Assembly: GCA_963712425.1 (NCBI GenBank)
Contig: CAVQHW010000004.1
Span: 308,390-372,389, forward strand
DNA length: 64,000 nucleotides
Source of the DNA: an uncultured Actinomycetota bacterium
GTDB lineage: Bacteria; Actinomycetota; Actinomycetes; JAHEKZ01
Direction of reading: 5' to 3'
The position numbers and the translations under genes were made by a program. Below, piece after piece: positions 40,667-49,825 of the stretch. Numbering within the stretch: the first letter of the stretch is position 1; every line of letters begins with the position of its first letter. The notes under the pieces are model-generated. The model was not told the origin of the DNA. It did no database searches and saw only the letters and a list, made by a program, of their open reading frames with translations.

Positions 40667-42841
40667 TCAGCCGCTCAGGGGCTCCGGGAGTTCGCCACGC
40701 GAGGGGTCGTAGCCCACCGGTGCCGTCGGCTCGGGCTCTTCATCGTCAACCTGGATGCACCTCACGACTACCGCCACTGCCACGGGGATAGCAAGGGTCG
40801 CAGCCATCGCGGGGATGGCAACCCCAGAGTCATTGACCAGTGCCCCGACCACCCCCAGCACGAGGACAGCAAACAGGCCGGCTCGGAGCGTGGGCACTCG
40901 GACGAAAGTCCAGGGCAAGAGACCGCTTGGTCGCCGAACGAGGAAGGCCAGGAACACCAGGACCAGGGGCACCATCAAGGTCAGGACGCTGTTCGTCAAC
41001 AGTGAGAGGTTCGCTTCGAGTTTTCGCTGGACGATCACTAGCGCGTCGCCGTCAATCACCGACTGCACGAAGCGACCGAGGTGTGTGCGGCTGTCCTCGG
41101 GGCGCAGAAAGTCGACCGTCGCAATCACGACAACCGACAAGACTCCGGCGGCTAGAAGCCCGCCGAATCGCAGCAACGACAACCGTCGACCCGTAGCAAG
41201 GATCAGCAGCGTGCCGAACGCAGGGACCAACGCGATGACCCCGCCGAAGTCACTACCTAAGAACGGGGCGCCATCGATGACGATCGCAGCAAGCCCCATG
41301 CCGATGACCACCCAGGTAGTCGTCTTCACGGACCTTCCGGACACCAGGGCAGCCGCAGCGAGCAGCATCGCCGTACCGAAGATCGCGAAAGCAAGGTTGC
41401 CGAACCCGACGAATCGACCGGCCACGATCGGCGAGTAGCCGGCAAGGCTCGCGAGCTGCAGCTGGGCTCCTGCCACCAGGTCGCATACCAGGACGATCGC
41501 GGTTAAGCCGGCCACCACTCCTGCTGGTCCGAACGGATGGCTGCGCCACGGGCCGGCGAAAGCGATGGCGGTGAGTGTTGCCCCCGACAAACTGATGGCT
41601 ACCAGAAGCGATGGCACGGGATGCTCGGCCTGCCACCACGGCAGGACATTGGCCAAGTAGGTTGCGGCTGGCCCTGCCGCTGCGGCGACGGCCACGACAT
41701 GGGTGAAGCTGAGGACACGCGACCTGGTGCGGTCACGAGGGTGGCGTCGAAGGATCACGAACGCACCGAGATACAAGATCGCCTGCAGCAAGACCAACAG
41801 TCCGAAGAATGGCGGCGTCAACTGGCCTTGCACATCAGCCTGTTGAGCGAGCTCACCGAACCATGTCACGCGGTCATCAACTCCGGCTGACGTTGAGCGC
41901 ATCGGTTGGTACGGCATCTGCGACGGTGCCGCGATGCCCAGTTGCTCGAGCACCGTCGGAGCGACGTCTGACAGCTGGACGAACGGCGCACGTCTGGTTG
42001 ACCCACTTTCGAGGACACCACCGGTGAAACCAGGACCATTGAGCAGTGCGAAATGCAGTTGCGCACGTTCCTCAGGTAGGTCGGAGACCCCGAGCACCAT
42101 CAACAGTGAGTTCCTCGGACGCATGGCGTCGATCGACTCGACGGTGCCATCGAGCCCAGACATCTCACCGAGCCGTCGCTCCGACGACAGCGGTGGCACA
42201 CCAACGACCGAGAGCGCACAGTCACGCAGCGAGCTCGGCGTCAGCGAAATGGGATCGTCGATCCACTTGGTCACGTAGCCGTTCTCGTCGGCGGCACCCA
42301 GGGCGCTGCCGGGTCCGGTGGCCAACGCGCATTCGGCGTTGTCTCTCAGGGTCTGTCCCAGAAGCCCAGGAACGGCATCAAAGGTCAGCGACTCGTTCTC
42401 GGCAACGACGGCCGACCACCGGTCGACGCGCGCGCCGCCGTCATCCTCAGCTTCCACCTCCGGCAACGGAGGACAACCGTCCTCGATGGGTTCGACTGGC
42501 ATCGGAAACCTGGCCCGGTTGCCAGTGCCCAGCTGCACCCAACCATCGGCGGGGCAGGTGCGGGAGCGAGCTGAACGGGTACTCATCTGCCCGAGAGCCG
42601 AAACCTCAGACAACTCCCACAGGTACGGCGTCCGCTGCGCATCAACGTCAGTCCATCGCAGCCCTGGCACGCCGACGACGATCACCGACGGCTCGCGGAG
42701 TTTCACGGTCTCTGCCTGCGGTGTCGCGGCAGCGGCGGGCGCCACGACACCGACCATCAGCGCCATCGACGCAGCTATCACGGCAACCGCGGCTATACCG
42801 GTCCGCGCGCGAACCCCGATCAGAGCAACGAACGTCAACAC
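40667..42841 (-). CDS. Large membrane protein: extracytoplasmic alkaline-phosphatase-like core plus ~11 TM domain
   Basis: Signal-like N-terminus, VIVVGVPGLRW and VQLSDVAPTVL..LG segments, then many TM helices with GRFVGFGN, GSDFGG, THLGRF and NDSG motifs. Confidence 0.75.
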   Translation of the reverse strand: MLTFVALIGVRARTGIAAVAVIAASMALMVGVVAPAAAATPQAETVKLREPSVIVVGVPGLRWTDVDAQRTPYLWELSEVSALGQMSTRSARSRTCPADGWVQLGTGNRARFPMPVEPIEDGCPPLPEVEAEDDGGARVDRWSAVVAENESLTFDAVPGLLGQTLRDNAECALATGPGSALGAADENGYVTKWIDDPISLTPSSLRDCALSVVGVPPLSSERRLGEMSGLDGTVESIDAMRPRNSLLMVLGVSDLPEERAQLHFALLNGPGFTGGVLESGSTRRAPFVQLSDVAPTVLEQLGIAAPSQMPYQPMRSTSAGVDDRVTWFGELAQQADVQGQLTPPFFGLLVLLQAILYLGAFVILRRHPRDRTRSRVLSFTHVVAVAAAAGPAATYLANVLPWWQAEHPVPSLLVAISLSGATLTAIAFAGPWRSHPFGPAGVVAGLTAIVLVCDLVAGAQLQLASLAGYSPIVAGRFVGFGNLAFAIFGTAMLLAAAALVSGRSVKTTTWVVIGMGLAAIVIDGAPFLGSDFGGVIALVPAFGTLLILATGRRLSLLRFGGLLAAGVLSVVVIATVDFLRPEDSRTHLGRFVQSVIDGDALVIVQRKLEANLSLLTNSVLTLMVPLVLVFLAFLVRRPSGLLPWTFVRVPTLRAGLFAVLVLGVVGALVNDSGVAIPAMAATLAIPVAVAVVVRCIQVDDEEPEPTAPVGYDPSRGELPEPLSG

Positions 42842-42845
42842 GTGA

Positions 42846-43979
42846 TCACTTGCTCACCTGGGGTTCGCAGACAGTGTCGTATGCATCGAGGACTCGCTCG
42901 ACGGCTTCGTTCTCATCGGGCCAGTTAGCCGCAAGCGCACGGGCACGATCGGCTCGGTCTCGCGCGACTTCAGGATGGTCCAGCACATCTCGGATGGCGG
43001 CGGCGAGTGCGTTCGGATCGCGCGGAGGGACAAGGAGCGCCTCTGACCCAACGAGTTCAGGGATGCCTCCTACCGACGTCGCCACGACAGGCAGGCCCGC
43101 AAGAACTGCTTCCTGCACCACCAGCGCTCGTGCCTCCCACACGCTCGACAGCACGAAGACGTCGGCCGCATTCATCAGGTCGGCAACGTCTGCTCGTCGT
43201 CCCAGCATGCGACTGCGAACCGCCAGTGACCCCGACAGTTCGGCTATCGAATCCGCGTCTGGGCCATCGCCAGCAATGACGAGCACGGGCTGCGGAACCC
43301 GCGACTGCAGTTGTGCCATCGCGGAGAGAAGGGTCGGGTAGTCCTTTTGCCCATGCAGCCTGCCGACCGCGAGCACCATCGGTTCGTCGCCGACCCCGAT
43401 GGCCTGCCGCACCTCATCCCGAGCTGCCTTGACAACAGCAGGTGTCGGCGCCGCAACAGCTCCGAGCTCGGCACGGCCGCCGAGGGCAACAGCCCGTTCG
43501 ACCAGATCAGTGGACGCCCCGAGGTTCAGGGTGGCTCCGCGCGCGACCGACTGCTCGACCCGGTGCATCACCTGCCCTCGAACACCACCGTCGAGCACCT
43601 GGTTGTGCCACGTCACGACCAAGGGAACCGACGCGCGACGCACCCCGGCAACCGGCCATGCCGCCCCCGCTCCTGCGCTCAGGGCGACGAGCCCGGCGCG
43701 AAATCCGTGGGCATGAACCACGTCGGCACCGCGGACCCACCTCGCCACCTGACGAGCCACCACAAGATCCTTCGGCGAGGGCGTCACGCCGATCGCGGCT
43801 TCGACGAAGCGTGCACCGGTACTCGCGAAGTCGAACACTTCGTCTGCCTGGGCGGGCGCGGCGACCACCACCCGATGACCGCGTGACACCAGACCGAACG
43901 CGAGCGATCGGACGTGCTGCCCGATACCGCCGGTGCTCGTACCGAGAATGAGCAGTACCCGCCGAGGTTCACTCGTCAC
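42846..43979 (-). CDS. Glycosyltransferase family 4 (GT-B)
   Basis: GGIGQHV, VVHAHG, VTWHN, VGRL..QKDY and SVWEARALVVQEA..AGLPVVAT.VGG. Confidence 0.92.
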   Translation of the reverse strand: MTSEPRRVLLILGTSTGGIGQHVRSLAFGLVSRGHRVVVAAPAQADEVFDFASTGARFVEAAIGVTPSPKDLVVARQVARWVRGADVVHAHGFRAGLVALSAGAGAAWPVAGVRRASVPLVVTWHNQVLDGGVRGQVMHRVEQSVARGATLNLGASTDLVERAVALGGRAELGAVAAPTPAVVKAARDEVRQAIGVGDEPMVLAVGRLHGQKDYPTLLSAMAQLQSRVPQPVLVIAGDGPDADSIAELSGSLAVRSRMLGRRADVADLMNAADVFVLSSVWEARALVVQEAVLAGLPVVATSVGGIPELVGSEALLVPPRDPNALAAAIRDVLDHPEVARDRADRARALAANWPDENEAVERVLDAYDTVCEPQVSK

Positions 43980-45615
43980 TGTCCACCACAGCCTTGCGCC
44001 GCGACCGCATGCGCAACAGCGTACGAGCCGACGATGGATCGACGAGCAGAACCACACCGCCCACGACGAGTGCCGATACCAAGCCGACCAGCGCCGTCTG
44101 AAGCAGGGCCATGGCAATCGAGGTGCTGTCGTCAAGGAGCGTGTGGCCAAGCCAACCGACGGCTAATGCCGCGAGACCAGCGCCAAGAGTCAGCTTCGCC
44201 ACTCCTGCCACGGCTTGAGACCCCTCCACACGCACCACAGTGAGCACGAGGATCACCGCAGCCACGACGAGCCCAGCACTGAACCCGACCCCGATGGCGC
44301 GAGCCACCTCGGCCGCGTCGCTCGCCTCGCGAACGAGCACCCATGCCACGACGAGCCCAACAACCCAACCGGCCACTGTTCCTGCCGCCGCAAGCGGAGC
44401 CTGGTGAGAGGCCGCGAGGACCCGGACGAGGTGCCCTTGCACCCCGTAGGCAAGGACGCCAGGAGCGAGCGCGACCAAGAAGGTGGCGAGTGGGATCACA
44501 GCCGGCTCACCTGGCGCGCCTTTGAGCATGATCGATGCCAATGGCACAGATGCTGCCGCAAGACCCGCGGCGCCTATCGCAGATACCCCAACGACTGCAC
44601 GCAGGCTCACAGCAGTCGCACGCGCCGCACCGTTGCGGTCGTTGCGCGCGTGGAGTGTCGATATTCGTGGAAAGGTGCTGGTCGCGATGGGAAGTGCGAG
44701 AACTGACCACGGAAGCAGGAAGATCGTCCATGCCAAAGCAAAGATGAGTGCGCTGCCCTCGCCTCCATAGACGTTGCTCCAGCGGATCGCAGCCGCGTAG
44801 GCGACCCACTGCGATCCAACGACGATGGCTCCGCTCCACGCGAGCGTCCCCGCCTGCATCGCCTGGCCAGCAGGAAAGTGCAGCGTAGGAAGCACAATGA
44901 GTCGCGCCCTAACCAGCGCTGGTATCTGCACCAGCAGCAACACGACAACGCCCAGCGTGGTACCGCCGGCGAGGACCCAGAACTCGGCGTCCGTCAACGT
45001 GCCAAGCGATCGGTCAGGTCCGGCCATTTCGGCGTAGACGAGGTAGCTGCCAATCACGACCAGACTCGAAATGGCCGGCGCGACAGCTGGCGCAAAGAAG
45101 CGATGGTGCGCCTGCAAGGCTCCCTGCGCGATCACGGTGGCGCCGTACACGGGGATCTGTAGCAAGAACACCCACAACATCTCAGTGGCGACCATAGAGG
45201 TGTCGCTGGGACAGTTCGCGGTACTCCCGAGCAGCAGGTCGATGACCCACCCTGATGCGAGGTACATCACCGCCGTGATCGGAACTAGCAACAGCAGCGC
45301 CCAGCCATGAAGTGCCGCGGTCATTTCACGTACCCGCTGATGGTCGGTCTCGCGACTGCGGGCAATCAGTGGCACAACAACTGCAACTAGTGCTCCACCG
45401 ACCACAAGTTCGTAGACGATGTTGGGTACCGCATTTGCGGTGACATAGGCCGTGCTCAGGCACGTTGTACCAAGGGTCTGTGCAAGAAAGACAAACCGTA
45501 GGAACCCGATGATGCGAGCCACCACGGTGATGCCAGCGATCAGCAGGGCAGCGCTGACCCAGCTAGGAGTTCCCTGCGCGCTCGCTTGCCGAGCGTCGCC
45601 CTCGGCGCTGCTCAT
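43969..45615 (-). CDS. MurJ/MviN-like lipid-linked precursor flippase (MOP superfamily)
   Basis: ARIIGFLR, AYVTANAVPNIVYELVVGGAL and LPWSVLALPIATSTFP. About 14 TM segments. Confidence 0.87.
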   Translation of the reverse strand: MSSAEGDARQASAQGTPSWVSAALLIAGITVVARIIGFLRFVFLAQTLGTTCLSTAYVTANAVPNIVYELVVGGALVAVVVPLIARSRETDHQRVREMTAALHGWALLLLVPITAVMYLASGWVIDLLLGSTANCPSDTSMVATEMLWVFLLQIPVYGATVIAQGALQAHHRFFAPAVAPAISSLVVIGSYLVYAEMAGPDRSLGTLTDAEFWVLAGGTTLGVVVLLLVQIPALVRARLIVLPTLHFPAGQAMQAGTLAWSGAIVVGSQWVAYAAAIRWSNVYGGEGSALIFALAWTIFLLPWSVLALPIATSTFPRISTLHARNDRNGAARATAVSLRAVVGVSAIGAAGLAAASVPLASIMLKGAPGEPAVIPLATFLVALAPGVLAYGVQGHLVRVLAASHQAPLAAAGTVAGWVVGLVVAWVLVREASDAAEVARAIGVGFSAGLVVAAVILVLTVVRVEGSQAVAGVAKLTLGAGLAALAVGWLGHTLLDDSTSIAMALLQTALVGLVSALVVGGVVLLVDPSSARTLLRMRSRRKAVVDSDE

Positions 45616-46451
45616 GACGAACGACGGCCCAGCCCGTCCAAGAACCGCAAGGGCGGAGTCTGCTCGATCAGCTGAGAGAAGCTGACGCGCTCGCTCAAGA
45701 GCGTCAACGCGCTGAGCGCGGCCAGCGTGGTGAACAGGCTGCTTCGGCTCATGGACGCCGCCGCGCCAACGCCCCATGCGGCACCGAGCGCGTTGGCGCC
45801 CGTGTCCCCCAACATCGCGCGTTCTGCCAGGTCATCGCCGATAGTCGCGGCGACGGCTCCGACCGGGCCAGCAACCACTGTGCCGAACCCGCTGCGTCCA
45901 CCGGCCGTTTCACTGACCAGCGGAACTGCGGACGCGAGCAGGAAGGCTTTCGAAGCTCGACCAGGACGCAGGTCAAGGAGGTTTGCCATGTTGGCCGAAC
46001 CTGCGACGACGCCACCGGCGAGGATGGCATCGACCACTCCGCCGCGCCCCCGACGAGCGGCCGCCCCTACCAGTAGGCCCGTTGCCATCAAACCGAAGAG
46101 CTTGACCGATCCTGTGGTCACGGTGCCGCTTCGCAGTTCACCAAGGTGGCCTCGTAAACCCTTAACGTCAGTGGCGCCCGTGAGGTCGTCGAGCGCGCCG
46201 AGAGCAGACGCCGCGGCGATTCCGGCGAACGCCGCAGAACGTGCCCCAGCGGGCTCACATGGCGCAATCAACAGACTGGCCAGTGCTCCAGCGGCCACCG
46301 CTGGGCCTTCCGCCAAGGTCACAGGTTCGCCGCGGTGGTTCGTGCGTTGCCATCGTTCCGCAGAGCTGCTCTGCTGGATGGCGGTGTACGTGCGTCGTGC
46401 GACGAAGCCTCCGACTGCCGCACTAGCCAATCGTCGCAGCACCGTCAGCAC
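45612..46451 (-). CDS. MraY/WecA-like polyprenyl-phosphate phosphotransferase (PNPT-like)
   Basis: RTNHRG, LGALDDL (DD motif), ANMANLLDLRPGRA (compare NxxNxxDGxDG) and MLGDTGANALG (compare FMGDTGSxxLG). Confidence 0.75.
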   Translation of the reverse strand: MLTVLRRLASAAVGGFVARRTYTAIQQSSSAERWQRTNHRGEPVTLAEGPAVAAGALASLLIAPCEPAGARSAAFAGIAAASALGALDDLTGATDVKGLRGHLGELRSGTVTTGSVKLFGLMATGLLVGAAARRGRGGVVDAILAGGVVAGSANMANLLDLRPGRASKAFLLASAVPLVSETAGGRSGFGTVVAGPVGAVAATIGDDLAERAMLGDTGANALGAAWGVGAAASMSRSSLFTTLAALSALTLLSERVSFSQLIEQTPPLRFLDGLGRRSS

Positions 46452-46453
46452 CG

Positions 46454-47371
46454 TCAGCCCCGCGGCAACGGGTCGGGAGCGGGGCCGTCTGACCCTTCGC
46501 CGGTTCCGTAATGGCCGACACCGCCAGCGATCTGTTCGGCAAGCGCGGCGATCGTGACGGTCACACCGTTGGCGGTCTCGAGTCGGTCCTCACTCGAGAT
46601 CACTCCATCGATGTCCGACGAACGCAGAACCCCAATCACTCCCGACGATGCGTCGCTGCCGGCCGGTGCACTGAGAACTGTGCCAACACCGGCCTCGTCG
46701 AACGCTGCCAGAAGGGGTACGACGAACCGATCCGCATTCTCGACCGAGCCGTCAGGCCCGATCACGATGGCGGTGTCTGCCCGTACCACCTCGTCCTCGT
46801 CCGCCGAGATGAAGCCTTCGCCTTCAAGAGCGATCAATCCGTCGACCCCCTCGAGGGTGACTTCACCAACCCCTCGCTCATCCTGCGTGAGGAGTGCCTC
46901 GGCGAGTACTTGACTGGCAAGCTCGTATGGCTCTTCATCTCTGCCGGCGCGCTCAAACCCTTCAGCGACGCGAGCCAAGACTTCAGCCTGGTCGGGGTCA
47001 GCCCACGCCGGTTCGATGGTCACTCGCTCGGCGACCTCGCCGCTCGCCGCATTGACGGCGTCTTCGACGGCATCAACGTGGTCCCCGTCAGCGTCCGGTA
47101 GCACGATGAGTGTCGTCACATGTGTTGTGAGCAAGTCTTCGATGAGCACCGGTTGCGCGATCTCGGCAAACCGCTCGTTGTAGTCGAGCTCTGAGCGCAA
47201 TGCCGACACTTCGTCTTGCAGCTCGACCTTCTCTTGGCCCAGCTGCTCAGTGCGGTCCTCAAGGAACCCGCTGATGTCGTCCTTGAGTGGCCCAGAACCC
47301 AGCACGATCCCGACAGCCAGTGCCAAGAACACTGCCACCATCGATACGACGTGGTAGCGGAAGTCGATCAC
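46454..47371 (-). CDS. steB: SteB / MctB (DUF3186) family protein
   Basis: IDFRYHVVSMVAVFLALAVGIVLG N-terminus, coiled coil, C-terminal GHYG. Follows steA. Confidence 0.88.
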   Translation of the reverse strand: MIDFRYHVVSMVAVFLALAVGIVLGSGPLKDDISGFLEDRTEQLGQEKVELQDEVSALRSELDYNERFAEIAQPVLIEDLLTTHVTTLIVLPDADGDHVDAVEDAVNAASGEVAERVTIEPAWADPDQAEVLARVAEGFERAGRDEEPYELASQVLAEALLTQDERGVGEVTLEGVDGLIALEGEGFISADEDEVVRADTAIVIGPDGSVENADRFVVPLLAAFDEAGVGTVLSAPAGSDASSGVIGVLRSSDIDGVISSEDRLETANGVTVTIAALAEQIAGGVGHYGTGEGSDGPAPDPLPRG

Positions 47372-47411
47372 GTTGCCGTCCGTTCTGTTGCGTGTGGGTC
47401 GGCGTGGCTTG

Positions 47412-48584
47412 TCACCCGGTAACCCAGAACACCAGGTCGTTCCACCAGGACTCGACGAGGTCAAAGAAACTGCGACCGGCAGTCGTGGACACCATGGCGA
47501 CAATCAGCGCCGCCATCCCTGCTGCCAAGAGCAACACCAGCTGCCACGTAGAGATTCGGCTGCGATAGAGCCGGCTGACACCCTTCGCGTCGATGAGCTT
47601 GCCGCCGACTCGTAGTCGCGTCAGGAAGGTACTCGCCATGCCAGCGCGACCCTTGTCAAGAAACTCCACCAGTGTCACGTGGCTGCCGACCGCAACGATG
47701 AGTGAAGCGCCCTTGTCGTCAGCCAACAACATGGCGACGTCTTCGCTCGTGCCGGTGGCGGGAAACACGATCGGGTCGACACCGAGCGCCTCGACTCTCT
47801 CCAGGCCAGGCGCGCGACCGTCGCGATACGCGTGAACGACGACCTCAGCTCCAGCACTGAGCGCCTCGTCAGACACCGAGTCCATGTCACCGACGATGAG
47901 ATCAGGTCGATACCCCAACTCGAGAAGCGCATCGGCGCCACCGTCGACGCCGATCAGCACCGGTCGGTACTCGCGAATGTAGGGCCGAAGCGTCTGGAGG
48001 TCTTCTTTGTAGTGATAGCCGCGAACGACGATCAACACATGACGATCGTCGATCTCAGTCGCAATGTCAGGGACGCCGACTCCGTCGATCAGCAGGTCAC
48101 GCTCTTGGCGCAAGTACTCCATCGTGTTGCTGGCGAACGCTTCGAGCTGCACGGAGAGCCCTGCGCGGGCTTCCTCCATCGCCTGCTTGACGATCTCGGC
48201 ATCGAGCAGTTGGCCCTCGGCGACGACGACACCGTCGTGCATCAGTCGGTCACCGTCGAGGACGACGGTGTCACCGTCTTTCAACCGCCCGAAGACGTCA
48301 GGACCAACGTCGTCCAAGATGGGGATGCCAGCTTCGACAAGTATTTCTGGGCCAAGGTTCGGATAGCGGCCGCTGATACTGGCCGAGGCGTTGACCACGA
48401 CAGCAGGCGCACACGACACCAAGCCTTCGGCAGCTACTCGATCGATGTCGAGGTGATCGATGACGGCCACCTCGCCGGCACGCAGCCGCTTAGTCAGGTC
48501 CTTCGTGCGCTTGTCGAGGCGGGCAGCACCATTCGGCTCAGGTCCATCAACCGGAGCCGAACGTCGCAAGAGGGAAAGGCGCAC
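47412..48584 (-). CDS. steA: Cytokinetic ring protein SteA (thiamine pyrophosphokinase-like domain)
   Basis: DKRTKDLTKRL, SISGRYPNLGP, IGVDGGADAL, FLTRLRVGGKLIDAKGVS and a C-terminal TM helix. Confidence 0.92.
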   Translation of the reverse strand: MRLSLLRRSAPVDGPEPNGAARLDKRTKDLTKRLRAGEVAVIDHLDIDRVAAEGLVSCAPAVVVNASASISGRYPNLGPEILVEAGIPILDDVGPDVFGRLKDGDTVVLDGDRLMHDGVVVAEGQLLDAEIVKQAMEEARAGLSVQLEAFASNTMEYLRQERDLLIDGVGVPDIATEIDDRHVLIVVRGYHYKEDLQTLRPYIREYRPVLIGVDGGADALLELGYRPDLIVGDMDSVSDEALSAGAEVVVHAYRDGRAPGLERVEALGVDPIVFPATGTSEDVAMLLADDKGASLIVAVGSHVTLVEFLDKGRAGMASTFLTRLRVGGKLIDAKGVSRLYRSRISTWQLVLLLAAGMAALIVAMVSTTAGRSFFDLVESWWNDLVFWVTG

Positions 48585-48638
48585 CCCGTCATCCTGCCAG
48601 AGGGACGCCTCGTCAACCCGTCACCTAGCGGTGCGCGT

Positions 48639-49683
48639 TCAGTTCTGAAGCAGCACCGCGTCAACGCCCACCGTGGGCCGAGAGTCTGGGGATCGATTGA
48701 CAATCGTTATCGACGCGCCCCGGTCGATCGGAAGCTTGCTTGCCCACACCACTCGAGCCGGCCTCCGCTCCGCAGAGTACAGATTCACGGTGTCCACCAA
48801 CCGCCCGTCAACGAGGACGTCGGCTCGACCCCTACGAGGCCCAGTGCTCGTCACCCACCCGACGGATCGGCCCTCGACGCGTGACGCGGATGCGATCGCC
48901 GGCTTTTGTGCTGACCCACTCAGACCCGTCAACGGCTGCGGCGTCACGCGAGAGCTTCCAGCCATCAGACCGAGTGATGTCGCGCCATGCCACCGGTGCC
49001 ACATACCCATCACGCGGAGTCTTCGCCACGCGACCAACGCCATCGACAAGCCAGATCCGCCATACCAACTCAGAGCGCGGGGCCATCGTGAAGTCGAAGT
49101 GGGTGCGCGACGGTGACGTGCTGTAGCAGCACTCGGCGTTGGGCCCGAACCTCACCTCGGTGATGCCGGTCCCCTCGTCAGTTCCCGTCCACGTGAAGCG
49201 CATCGGATAGCCGTCTTGCGTCACAGGTCCGGGACGCAACAGCAGGCGCGGGAAGGACGTGAACACCGGCGAGACCTTGTCGACAACAACGTCCAGTGTG
49301 TGCGTTGACGTTCGTCGATTGCCTGAGGCGTCGATGGCGACAACGCTCACCTGATGCGTCCCCTCGGGAACGTCAACGCGCTTGGTGACCGTGGTGTAGC
49401 CGACCCCCTCGGTCACGATGCGATGGACAGCTCCATCCAGCATGACTTCGTACGTGACAGCCGACTCTTCATCAGTCGCCGTCTGCCACGTGATGTAGAT
49501 GTTGCTGTAGGGGGAAGCAACGGAGTAGCCGGTTTGGTAGTCCCCCAGGTCAGGAAGGATGTCGAACACACCAGGAGGGGTCGTGTCATCGCCAGCCGCC
49601 GTCGCTGGAACGGCTGGCCATGCGGCCAGCAGCATGAGGGTGCCTAAGGCACCCGTCAGCCACCGCGCTCTGGCTCCCGCCAC
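48639..49683 (-). CDS. Secreted beta-sandwich (FnIII/Ig-like) protein (frameshift near 48885)
   Basis: Signal peptide ending PATAA, DTTPP...ITW.TATD...YEV...VVAIDASGN FnIII-like pattern. A shifted frame continues VEGRSVGWVTSTGPRRGRADVLVDG...VDAVLLQN. Confidence 0.75.
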
Positions 49684-49825
49684 GAATTGGCCCTCCCCTT
49701 GGGCGACGTGACCCCCTCGACCACGCCTGCCGTTCCATGGTGAGTGGCGGCCGTCGACCGCATCGGAACACCGCAGCAACAGCACCCGAATGGCTCAACC
49801 GGACAAAGTGGACGCGACGCTGGCC

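Follow-up and report, generated by a model that had tools for sequence, protein, structure and literature searches.

SteA and SteB of Corynebacterium glutamicum (Cg1603/1604) and their counterparts Rv1697/Rv1698-MctB form a regulator of RipA/RipC cell separation (PMC6705760, PMC12977500) that governs the final step of division in Mycobacteriales, and pyrG follows steB in the organisms where the pair has been described. According to PMC12977500, GDP or UDP stabilises C. glutamicum SteA, whose conserved pocket resembles the nucleotide sites of thiamine pyrophosphokinase (TPK) and CstII, with the ligand left as an open question there. Here we analyse the steAB locus of an uncultured Actinomycetota bacterium (assembly GCA_963712425.1, contig CAVQHW010000004.1, positions 308,390 to 372,389), contained in a stretch of 64,000 nucleotides (nt) that we refer to as the window. 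At this locus steB is followed by a gene for a short protein with the fold of the MraY/WecA family (PNPT), and then by genes for a MurJ-family flippase, a family 4 glycosyltransferase (GT4) and a membrane protein of 724 amino acids (aa).

The module formed by these genes is real, conserved and uncharacterised. The logic of the pathway that it suggests is of a known kind, on which the short PNPT, the family of the 724-aa protein and the connection with a regulator of cell separation are new variations. We consider it somewhat probable that the window carries the local version of an old Actinomycetota gene set in which SteAB is encoded together with, and coupled to, a lipid-carrier-linked sugar pathway. 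No literature characterisation of the module was found, and supplementary synteny figures S4, S11 and S12 of the SteAB papers may show these neighbours. In the accessible text of PMC12977500 the strings ‘glycosyltransferase’ and ‘neighbo’ have no occurrences, that of PMC6705760 names MraY as a dcw gene only, and the available portions of the SteAB papers mention no such neighbours of steAB.

Conservation of steAB and its downstream genes

The row consists of six co-oriented, close-packed genes on the minus strand between recN and pyrG. A reading made from the sequence alone (the sequence-only reading) had described six co-oriented genes with gaps ranging from overlaps to 40 nt, which the coordinates of the open reading frames (ORFs) and a start-codon survey bear out. 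The first gene, steA (47412..48584, minus strand), encodes a cytoplasmic TPK-like protein with a C-terminal transmembrane (TM) helix that scores 526.8 bits against NF040608 (cut-off 150) and also matches PF12555 and PF04263; its TPK-like DGG...GDxDS residues are invariant among 30 orthologues. The adjacent and co-oriented steB (MctB family; 46454..47371, minus strand) scores 233.2 bits against PF11382 (cut-off 25.6). Its open frame reaches 47503, with the PF11382 match beginning at residue 46 of the long ORF, and the likely start is the GTG at 47371, giving 305 aa. The likeness to the described SteAB pairs lies in the matches to the family models, in the same recN ... pyrG context and in the retained pocket residues of SteA, and the difference lies in the short PNPT-fold gene and the MurJ, GT4 and 724-aa genes that stand where pyrG would follow. 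Going from steA to the 724-aa gene, successive genes are first 40 nt and then 2 nt apart, next overlap by an ATGA shared between the PNPT stop codon and the MurJ-like start and by 11 nt, and are finally 4 nt apart, sizes that depend on the most plausible start codons; 93 nt separate the 724-aa gene from pyrG.

We searched for these genes in a phylum sample of 201 genomes, this genome included, and in a class sample of 151 genomes, counting steA above the NF040608 cut-off and, in the phylum sample, the PNPT family at E≤1e-10. At most 12-16 candidates per genome were scored with the PNPT profile and 5 with the 724 profile, so some members may have been missed. In the phylum sample, steA was found in 106 of the 201 genomes and the PNPT family in 99 of these 106, compared with 3 of the 95 genomes without steA. 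In 90 of the 106 the PNPT gene shares a contig with steA at a distance of at most 15 kb, in all 90 downstream and co-oriented, and in 61 the distance is at most 3 kb. The seven genomes with steA and without PNPT comprise all six members of one family (f4, genomes of 5.6-7.5 Mb) and one other; among the candidates scored, a Mycobacterium-type group yielded no PNPT. Members of the 724 family were found in 78 of the 106 steA-positive and 4 of the 95 steA-negative genomes, within 15 kb of steA in 32 genomes and co-oriented in 31 of them. When six genomes flagged as unpublished (G018, G174, G048, G082, G148, G088) are set aside, 93 of the remaining 100 have PNPT, 85 within 15 kb and 60 within 3 kb of steA, and 73 have the 724 family, 27 within 15 kb of steA.

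In the class sample, steA was found in 113 of 151 genomes and PNPT in 79 of the 113. It is on the same contig in 74 genomes, always downstream and co-oriented, and within 3 kb of steA in 73 (median gap 1050 bp), and was found in 1 of the 38 genomes without steA. Setting aside the flagged genomes (G229, G240, G233, G227, G213, G222) leaves 76 with PNPT, 72 on the same contig and 72 within 3 kb, out of 107. The short PNPT is a near-constant third gene of the Actinomycetota steAB operon.

Gene order varies by lineage with membership retained, as in PNPT-MurJ-GT4-724 here and MurJ-GT4-724-PNPT elsewhere. Among 20 loci chosen by hand, one or two per family, the most frequent type was steA-steB-PNPT-pyrG (9 loci), followed by steA-steB-MurJ-GT4-724-PNPT-pyrG (4), loci with GT4, 724 and PNPT in which MurJ was not detected (3), steA-steB-PNPT-MurJ-GT4-pyrG (2, close relatives) and MurJ then PNPT (1). 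The remaining locus, from family f4, reads steA-steB-pyrG, which would be the order of mycobacteria and corynebacteria. Among 78 public loci collected with the 724 profile, all six genes are present in 18, at least one of PNPT, MurJ and GT4 in 27, and pyrG only in one. The expectation that these genes recur beside steAB in other genomes is upheld by both samples and by the public loci. Two further claims of the sequence-only reading need revision. It had described the downstream genes as an extension of steAB, and we find steA-steB-short PNPT to be the common arrangement in the Actinomycetota sampled, with steB followed by pyrG the exception. It had also treated the four genes as one fixed unit, and many loci have PNPT only, with 50 of the 78 public 724 loci lying elsewhere. 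The constant unit is steA-steB-short PNPT, and MurJ, GT4 and the 724 gene are facultative. The gene set is old and widespread, and was apparently lost in the mycobacteria and corynebacteria that have been studied best.

Variation was also seen at steA itself. Open frames of 941-1015 aa at steA in another family (f13; G150, G176, G006 and G021 for example) suggest SteA-SteB fusions, which have been reported for Nocardioidaceae (PMC12977500).

Folds and families of the downstream proteins

The third gene (45612..46451, minus strand) encodes a protein of 279 aa with nine TM helices, for which the MraY/WecA fold had been predicted. Its AlphaFold2 (AF2) model, based on an alignment with 32 homologues, has a mean predicted local distance difference test score (pLDDT) of 92, and agrees with that prediction. 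In a Foldseek search with the model, ranks 1-38 are all MraY/DPAGT1 chains and rank 39 has E 0.5. Comparison by VIA gave Z 18.3-23.2 for 18 MraY/DPAGT1 entries, with the next fold at 5.6, and root-mean-square deviations of 3.1-3.8 Å over 233-255 of the 279 residues. Residues 1-274 of the model cover MraY 20-341, so that TM1 to the last cytoplasmic loop are common to both and TM10 is absent. At the sequence level, a single-sequence search of the PDB gave nothing at E≤10, a search with the PNPT profile gave a marginal match to E. coli MraY (E 0.088), and PF00953 is carried by 4 of 120 homologues among the matches listed.

The motifs that had been pointed out in the sequence, GALDDL (residues 85-90), ANMANLLD (153-160) and MLGDTG (213-218), are all present and, like those quoted for the 724-aa protein, are the most conserved positions of the family. 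In comparison with the MraY and WecA-like proteins of the same genome, the protein keeps the N-terminal P...G, the DD pair (D88, D89), N154, N157, D160 and G-D216-x-G. D88 and D89 are invariant in 32 sequences and align with the DD of both genomic proteins, and the invariant M-L-G-D216-x-G aligns to the FMGD of E. coli MraY. Among 19 orthologues of 28-56% identity from different families of the phylum, 19 positions are invariant (G98, H102, G114, K117, N154, N157, D160, P163, G164, R165, K168, M213, L214, G215, D216, G218, G223, G227 and D272), with D88 and D89 nearly so. The short PNPT shares with MraY/WecA/DPAGT1 (PF00953) the fold, the DD motif, NxxNxxD and the GDxG with its Asp, and differs in its length of about 275 rather than about 360 aa, in the missing TM10, in a Pro for the second Asp of DGxDG and in a replaced His motif. 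Relative to these enzymes it has a new set of invariant residues: R-x-N-H/Y-R-G, G-H102, K117, R165 and K168. The alignments show a family under strong constraint that is not decaying. It is also large, with at least 4476 matches among the 8000 candidates scored. Judging from the model, the protein is a short, divergent member of the PNPT fold that would have PNPT-like action at best.

The fourth gene (43969..45615, minus strand, likely start ATG 45615) encodes a MurJ-family (MOP) protein that scores 159.1 bits against PF03023 (cut-off 27.4). Its 143.8 bits against the equivalog TIGR01695 fall below the cut-off of 235.55, whereas another copy in the genome reaches 356.2 bits. These scores identify it as a second, divergent MurJ-family paralogue, not the housekeeping MurJ. 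The genome (2.72 Mb in 6 contigs, 91% complete) also has an mraY beside murF (TIGR00445, 279.1 bits) and a wecA-like gene, and its housekeeping murJ meeting TIGR01695 is on another contig (C2:287446-288822), so the separate housekeeping mraY and murJ that had been anticipated are present. Because the genome has its own mraY, wecA-like gene and better-scoring murJ elsewhere, no gene of the window can be taken for the housekeeping copy, and we rejected the reading of the row as a housekeeping duplicate. Of five NlpC/P60 matches in this genome, the best (C2:290259-290555) falls in a frame of 447 aa about 1.4 kb downstream of the housekeeping murJ; by its sequence this frame is a possible RipA-like partner of SteAB.

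The fifth gene (42846..43979, minus strand, likely start GTG 43979) encodes a cytoplasmic GT4 glycosyltransferase of the GT-B type. PF13579 and PF13439 match its N-terminal half, and PF00534 (110.2 bits) and PF13692 its C-terminal half, all above their cut-offs, with no NCBIfam equivalog reached. The nearest solved relatives are BshA, MshA, PimB’ and PglA-type GT4 enzymes (E 1e-16 to 1e-8).

The last gene of the row (40667..42841, minus strand) encodes the 724-aa membrane protein. Its AF2 model (pLDDT 88) has a signal or anchor helix, an extracytoplasmic domain of the alkaline phosphatase (AP) fold at residues ~50-320 and a domain of about 11 TM helices at ~324-701. VIA gave Z 15.4-19.9 for the 50 entries listed with residues ~49-320, with ENPP7, iPGM and sulfatases best, and LtaS, LtaP and PbgA/YejM are also among the AP-fold matches of Foldseek and VIA. 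In a conservation map of 33 homologues, the invariant polar residues (D454, R476, N482, D531, D577, H587, R606, K607, N670, D671 and S672) concentrate in the ~11-TM domain, where the motifs GRFVGFGN (475-482), GSDFGG (529-534), THLGRF (586-591) and NDSG (670-673) are also located.

Sequence searches placed the protein in no named family. There was no Pfam or NCBIfam match at E≤0.01. When 33 members were compared with Pfam at E≤1, 12 families were listed, all weak and scattered, with no GT-C/WaaL/Wzy-like family among them. A PDB search with the single sequence gave nothing at E≤10, and the 724 profile marginally matched the DVAPTVL stretch of iPGM (E 0.03). For the membrane domain, the clusters listed by an Atlas feature search were all from Actinomycetota and without a name, with no usable named match, and the whole-model Foldseek and VIA lists are filled by the phosphatase-fold domain, so that they exclude no membrane-domain family. 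The sequence-only reading had described a phosphatase- or sulfatase-like core with about 11 TM helices and had suggested a GT-C-, WaaL- or LtaS-like protein; the core and the helices stand, while no match to a named family was found and the domain order is not that of LtaS. The family comprises 3060 representative clusters at E≤0.001, and with the short PNPT it defines the second of two large uncharacterised membrane-protein families.

Copies of the 724 family occur in other arrangements. The genome has a second full-length paralogue (C3:513985-516024; L103:8881-11031, plus strand) with 36% identity over 676 residues. It adjoins a divergently oriented family 2 glycosyltransferase (GT2) gene of 268 aa (L103:8089-8895, minus strand), a pairing that mirrors the GT2 fusions described below. 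Three public loci (L032, L042, L044) have two tandem 724-family genes between GT4 and pyrG, with the match at about 10 kb and the second copy at about 12 kb, and representatives of ~1500 aa with two membrane-domain stretches (P0247 and P0254 for example) resemble fused tandems.

Fusion proteins connect several of these families. Twelve long relatives of the 724 family were scanned with Pfam: P0294 and P0302 are 724-GT2-724, P0314 is MurJ-724-GT2-724 and P0180 is GT4-724, with no Pfam match in the remaining eight. P0314 represents three full-length sequences, found on 4, 4 and 1 contigs, and P0294 two sequences. Among 28 longer relatives of the short PNPT, a SteB domain was found in 10, MurJ in 11 and GT4 in 2, and P0389 consists of the C-terminal half of SteB and a complete PNPT. 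The fusions and the re-ordered yet retained adjacency tie MurJ, GT4 and the 724 gene to each other and to PNPT, as facultative parts of one functional neighbourhood.

Around the row, the wider order on the minus strand is tlyA, nadK, recN, a gene for a 317-aa secreted Ig-like protein, the six genes, pyrG and a NUDIX gene. The 317-aa protein (48832-49785, minus strand), between recN and steA, has weak Ig-like (Big_13) matches, and a tblastn search of the 78 public loci recovered it from L006 and L007 only, which are the closest two. Within the row, a pattern scan found 4 terminator-like sites compared with 7.4 expected in shuffled sequence, which is no excess, and an Rfam scan gave no match. 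Long plus-strand ORFs at 42046-43341, 45727-46557 and 47832-48884 (276-431 aa) lie antisense to GT4, PNPT and steA, and their Arg/Ser/Pro/Ala-rich translations resemble the usual spurious frames of GC-rich DNA.

Evidence weighing against a single coupled pathway

A number of observations count against reading the six genes as one pathway coupled to SteAB, beginning with their distribution. The sampled genomes are kin, and the counts are not independent. Any of MurJ, GT4 and the 724 gene is present in only 10 of the 19 hand-picked loci that carry PNPT; since these genes are missing from many loci, a complete assembly line is not the conserved unit, and the minimal loci leave the flipping and use of a product unexplained. 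Fifty of the 78 public 724-family loci (in Nocardiopsis, Actinomadura, Spirillospora, Glycomyces and others) have no other gene of the row nearby. For these stand-alone genes, neighbour clustering and Pfam scans revealed no recurrent known partner, and a frequent downstream neighbour is unrelated to the 724 family. Furthermore, the order tlyA-nadK-recN-steA-steB-...-pyrG is kept though its genes are mostly functionally unrelated, so adjacency alone is weak evidence.

An alternative is that the row is frozen synteny without a functional link to SteAB, its last four genes making an ordinary secondary wall glycopolymer or lipoglycan independently of cell separation. The flanking tlyA, nadK, recN and pyrG hold the same places throughout the phylum without a common function, most 724-family genes lie elsewhere, and the paralogue in this genome sits beside a GT2 gene on another contig. 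We find this explanation distinctly unlikely. Against it stands the near confinement of PNPT to genomes with steA (3 of 95 and 1 of 38 genomes without it in the phylum and class samples), and the junctions are close-packed or overlapping, with SteB and PNPT joined in some fusion calls.

The short PNPT itself raises further difficulties. The second Asp of NxxNxxDGxDG is replaced by the invariant Pro163 (D-L-R-P-G-R), and the second Asp of DGxDG is essential in WecA and MraY. The His-rich loop (HHH in MraY, HxHH in WecA) is replaced by L-D-x-L-G-R-R, the aligned stretch being TPPLRFLD..GLGRR where the WecA-like protein of the same genome has QHLHH and its MraY has LQHHFE, and TM10 is missing. 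In addition, the threshold of PF00953 is not reached, and the 279-aa protein has no Pfam or NCBIfam match at E≤0.01. With these features lost, the protein may differ in function from a canonical phospho-sugar transferase. As for the PNPT fusions, the four looked up are singletons, each on one contig, and could be frameshift or gene-calling artefacts.

The two failures of catalytic motifs keep a non-enzymatic role for PNPT alive, in which it would be a subunit of SteAB that binds polyprenyl phosphate or a lipid precursor as a sensor, with MurJ, GT4 and the 724 gene a separate wall-glycan cassette lodged at the junction in some lineages. The loss of TM10, of the His motif and of the second Asp in NxxNxxDGxDG speaks for such a role, and the commonest and minimal locus is steA-steB-PNPT alone, with PNPT within 3 kb in 61 of 106 and 73 of 113 steA genomes of the phylum and class samples. 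The fusion calls with SteB (10 of 28) fit as well, as does the greater divergence of SteA where PNPT is missing: in the class sample, 30 of 34 SteA proteins from genomes without PNPT score at most 482 bits against NF040608 and 76 of 79 with PNPT at least 490 bits, a comparison confounded by phylogeny. In the four exceptions among the 34, either steA is close to the end of its contig or assembly completeness is 70-82%; fragmentary assemblies and partial matches aside, the scores divide according to the presence of PNPT. We nevertheless regard the sensor role as unlikely. The Mg/phosphate site (D88, D89, N154, N157, D160, D216) is invariant or nearly so throughout the phylum, as are new residues, basic ones and His, at the cytoplasmic face, a pattern more like that of an active site, and the fusion calls of PNPT with MurJ (11 of 28) and GT4 (2 of 28) tie it to the pathway genes.

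The ectodomain of the 724-aa protein also shows no obvious ligands for metal. Residues 45-330 contain no conserved His among the 33 homologues. By motif mapping only, the strand-1 position, which we take to be the site of the first metal-binding Asp of the AP family, reads V-P59-G with Pro at the place of the Asp, and the only candidate nucleophile region in the ectodomain is T95-C96-P97. An alternative reading makes the protein a transferase of the LtaS/EptA/GPI-ethanolamine-phosphate type, whose AP domain would act catalytically, taking a phospho-substituent from a lipid donor and passing it to a wall glycan. In favour of such an enzyme are the AP-superfamily fold, for which LtaS, LtaP and PbgA/YejM are listed matches, and the domain order of an anchor, an ectodomain and many TM helices, which presumably resembles that of the eukaryotic GPI ethanolamine-phosphate transferases. 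In LtaS, EptA and PbgA (YejM), too, the ectodomain has the AP fold and is attached to a polytopic membrane anchor. However, in LtaS and EptA a five-TM anchor is N-terminal to the AP domain, and here the order is reversed, with the ectodomain preceding about 11 TM helices and metal ligands not evident. Given that the invariant polar residues gather in the membrane domain instead, that PF01663 (3 of 33 members) and PF16347 (8 of 33) match weakly and below threshold, and that PF04987 is not among the 12 families listed at E≤1, we give this role little chance.

A proposed pathway and its relation to known systems

We return to a lipid-carrier-linked sugar pathway coupled to SteAB as the preferred reading. 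The sequence-only reading had proposed that a PNPT, a glycosyltransferase, a MOP flippase and an outer-face protein form a single pathway. The PNPT fold, the MurJ paralogy, the recurrence beside steAB and the fusions make this reasonable, and its picture of the genes as a fixed unit and an extension of steAB is to be given up. The undecaprenyl carrier, the short glycan and the septal acceptor that it named are conjectural. From the observed gene content, folds, paralogy, conserved neighbourhood and fusions we infer the chemical steps, the carrier lipid, the acceptor, the septal location and the link to SteA. At the inner face of the membrane, the short PNPT would transfer a phospho-sugar from a nucleotide sugar to polyprenyl phosphate, and the GT4 would add a further sugar. 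The second MurJ-type flippase would then carry the lipid-linked product to the outer face, where the 724-aa protein could use it by means of the Asp/Arg/His/Lys cluster of its membrane domain, the phosphatase-fold ectodomain serving as a binding module and not as a metallo-enzyme. The UDP- or GDP-accepting pocket of SteA may sense the donor or the product and so coordinate septal wall hydrolysis with the glycan. Since a PNPT reaction consumes a nucleotide sugar, the neighbourhood would offer a candidate ligand for SteA.

A bolder version of this proposal is possible, though we hold it only tentatively and rather doubt it. SteAB would stand at the head of an ancestral system for a septal glycan and regulate it, the SteA ligand being the nucleotide-sugar donor of PNPT or its nucleotide product. 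SteB and PNPT would be joined in the membrane, in line with the fusion calls, and RipA-type hydrolases would be released only during glycan synthesis or export. In Mycobacterium-type lineages the enzymatic arm would have disappeared and a re-tuned SteAB would have remained, and the 724 family would constitute a new class of outer-face polyprenyl-glycan transferases. The constrained MraY-like gene that follows steAB in most Actinomycetota sampled, often together with the flippase, glycosyltransferase and large membrane protein genes, provides a concrete candidate for what SteA senses, and its distribution indicates that the system has so far been studied in model organisms with a reduced form of it.

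A cluster in Clostridioides difficile, essential there, is apparently related by annotation and size. According to PMC12548448, CDR20291_1053-1057 encode a ‘pyrophosphokinase’ (373 aa), an exported protein (291 aa), a GT2, a member of a glycosyl transferase family (274 aa) and a DUF3866 protein; Table 2 lists them as essential with function unknown, and knock-down results in chaining and short swollen cells. The same paper lists a murJ paralogue with the PS-II wall polymer genes, and a 723-aa membrane protein among the essential ones. The likeness to the row described here is one of annotation and size alone, and the C. difficile cluster has a GT2 and a DUF3866 gene where this row has the MurJ, GT4 and 724-aa genes. 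If the two are homologous, the link would hold in another phylum and another genomic context (PMC12548448), which would also speak against frozen synteny.

The closest parallels in overall logic are the Wzx- or MurJ-dependent lipid-linked glycan pathways, which also use an inner-face transferase acting on a polyprenyl carrier, a flippase and a polytopic outer-face transferase. GtrA/GtrB/GtrC and CsbB/GtcA/YfhO are three-part systems for glycosylation at the outer face, and the fusions of GT2 and GT4 to the 724 family fit this three-part logic. No polymerase, ligase or LCP gene was found within the row. In comparison with the Wzx/MurJ and the Gtr/CsbB-type systems, the module described here is distinguished by an outer-face protein that belongs to no named family and by its tie to a regulator of cell separation.

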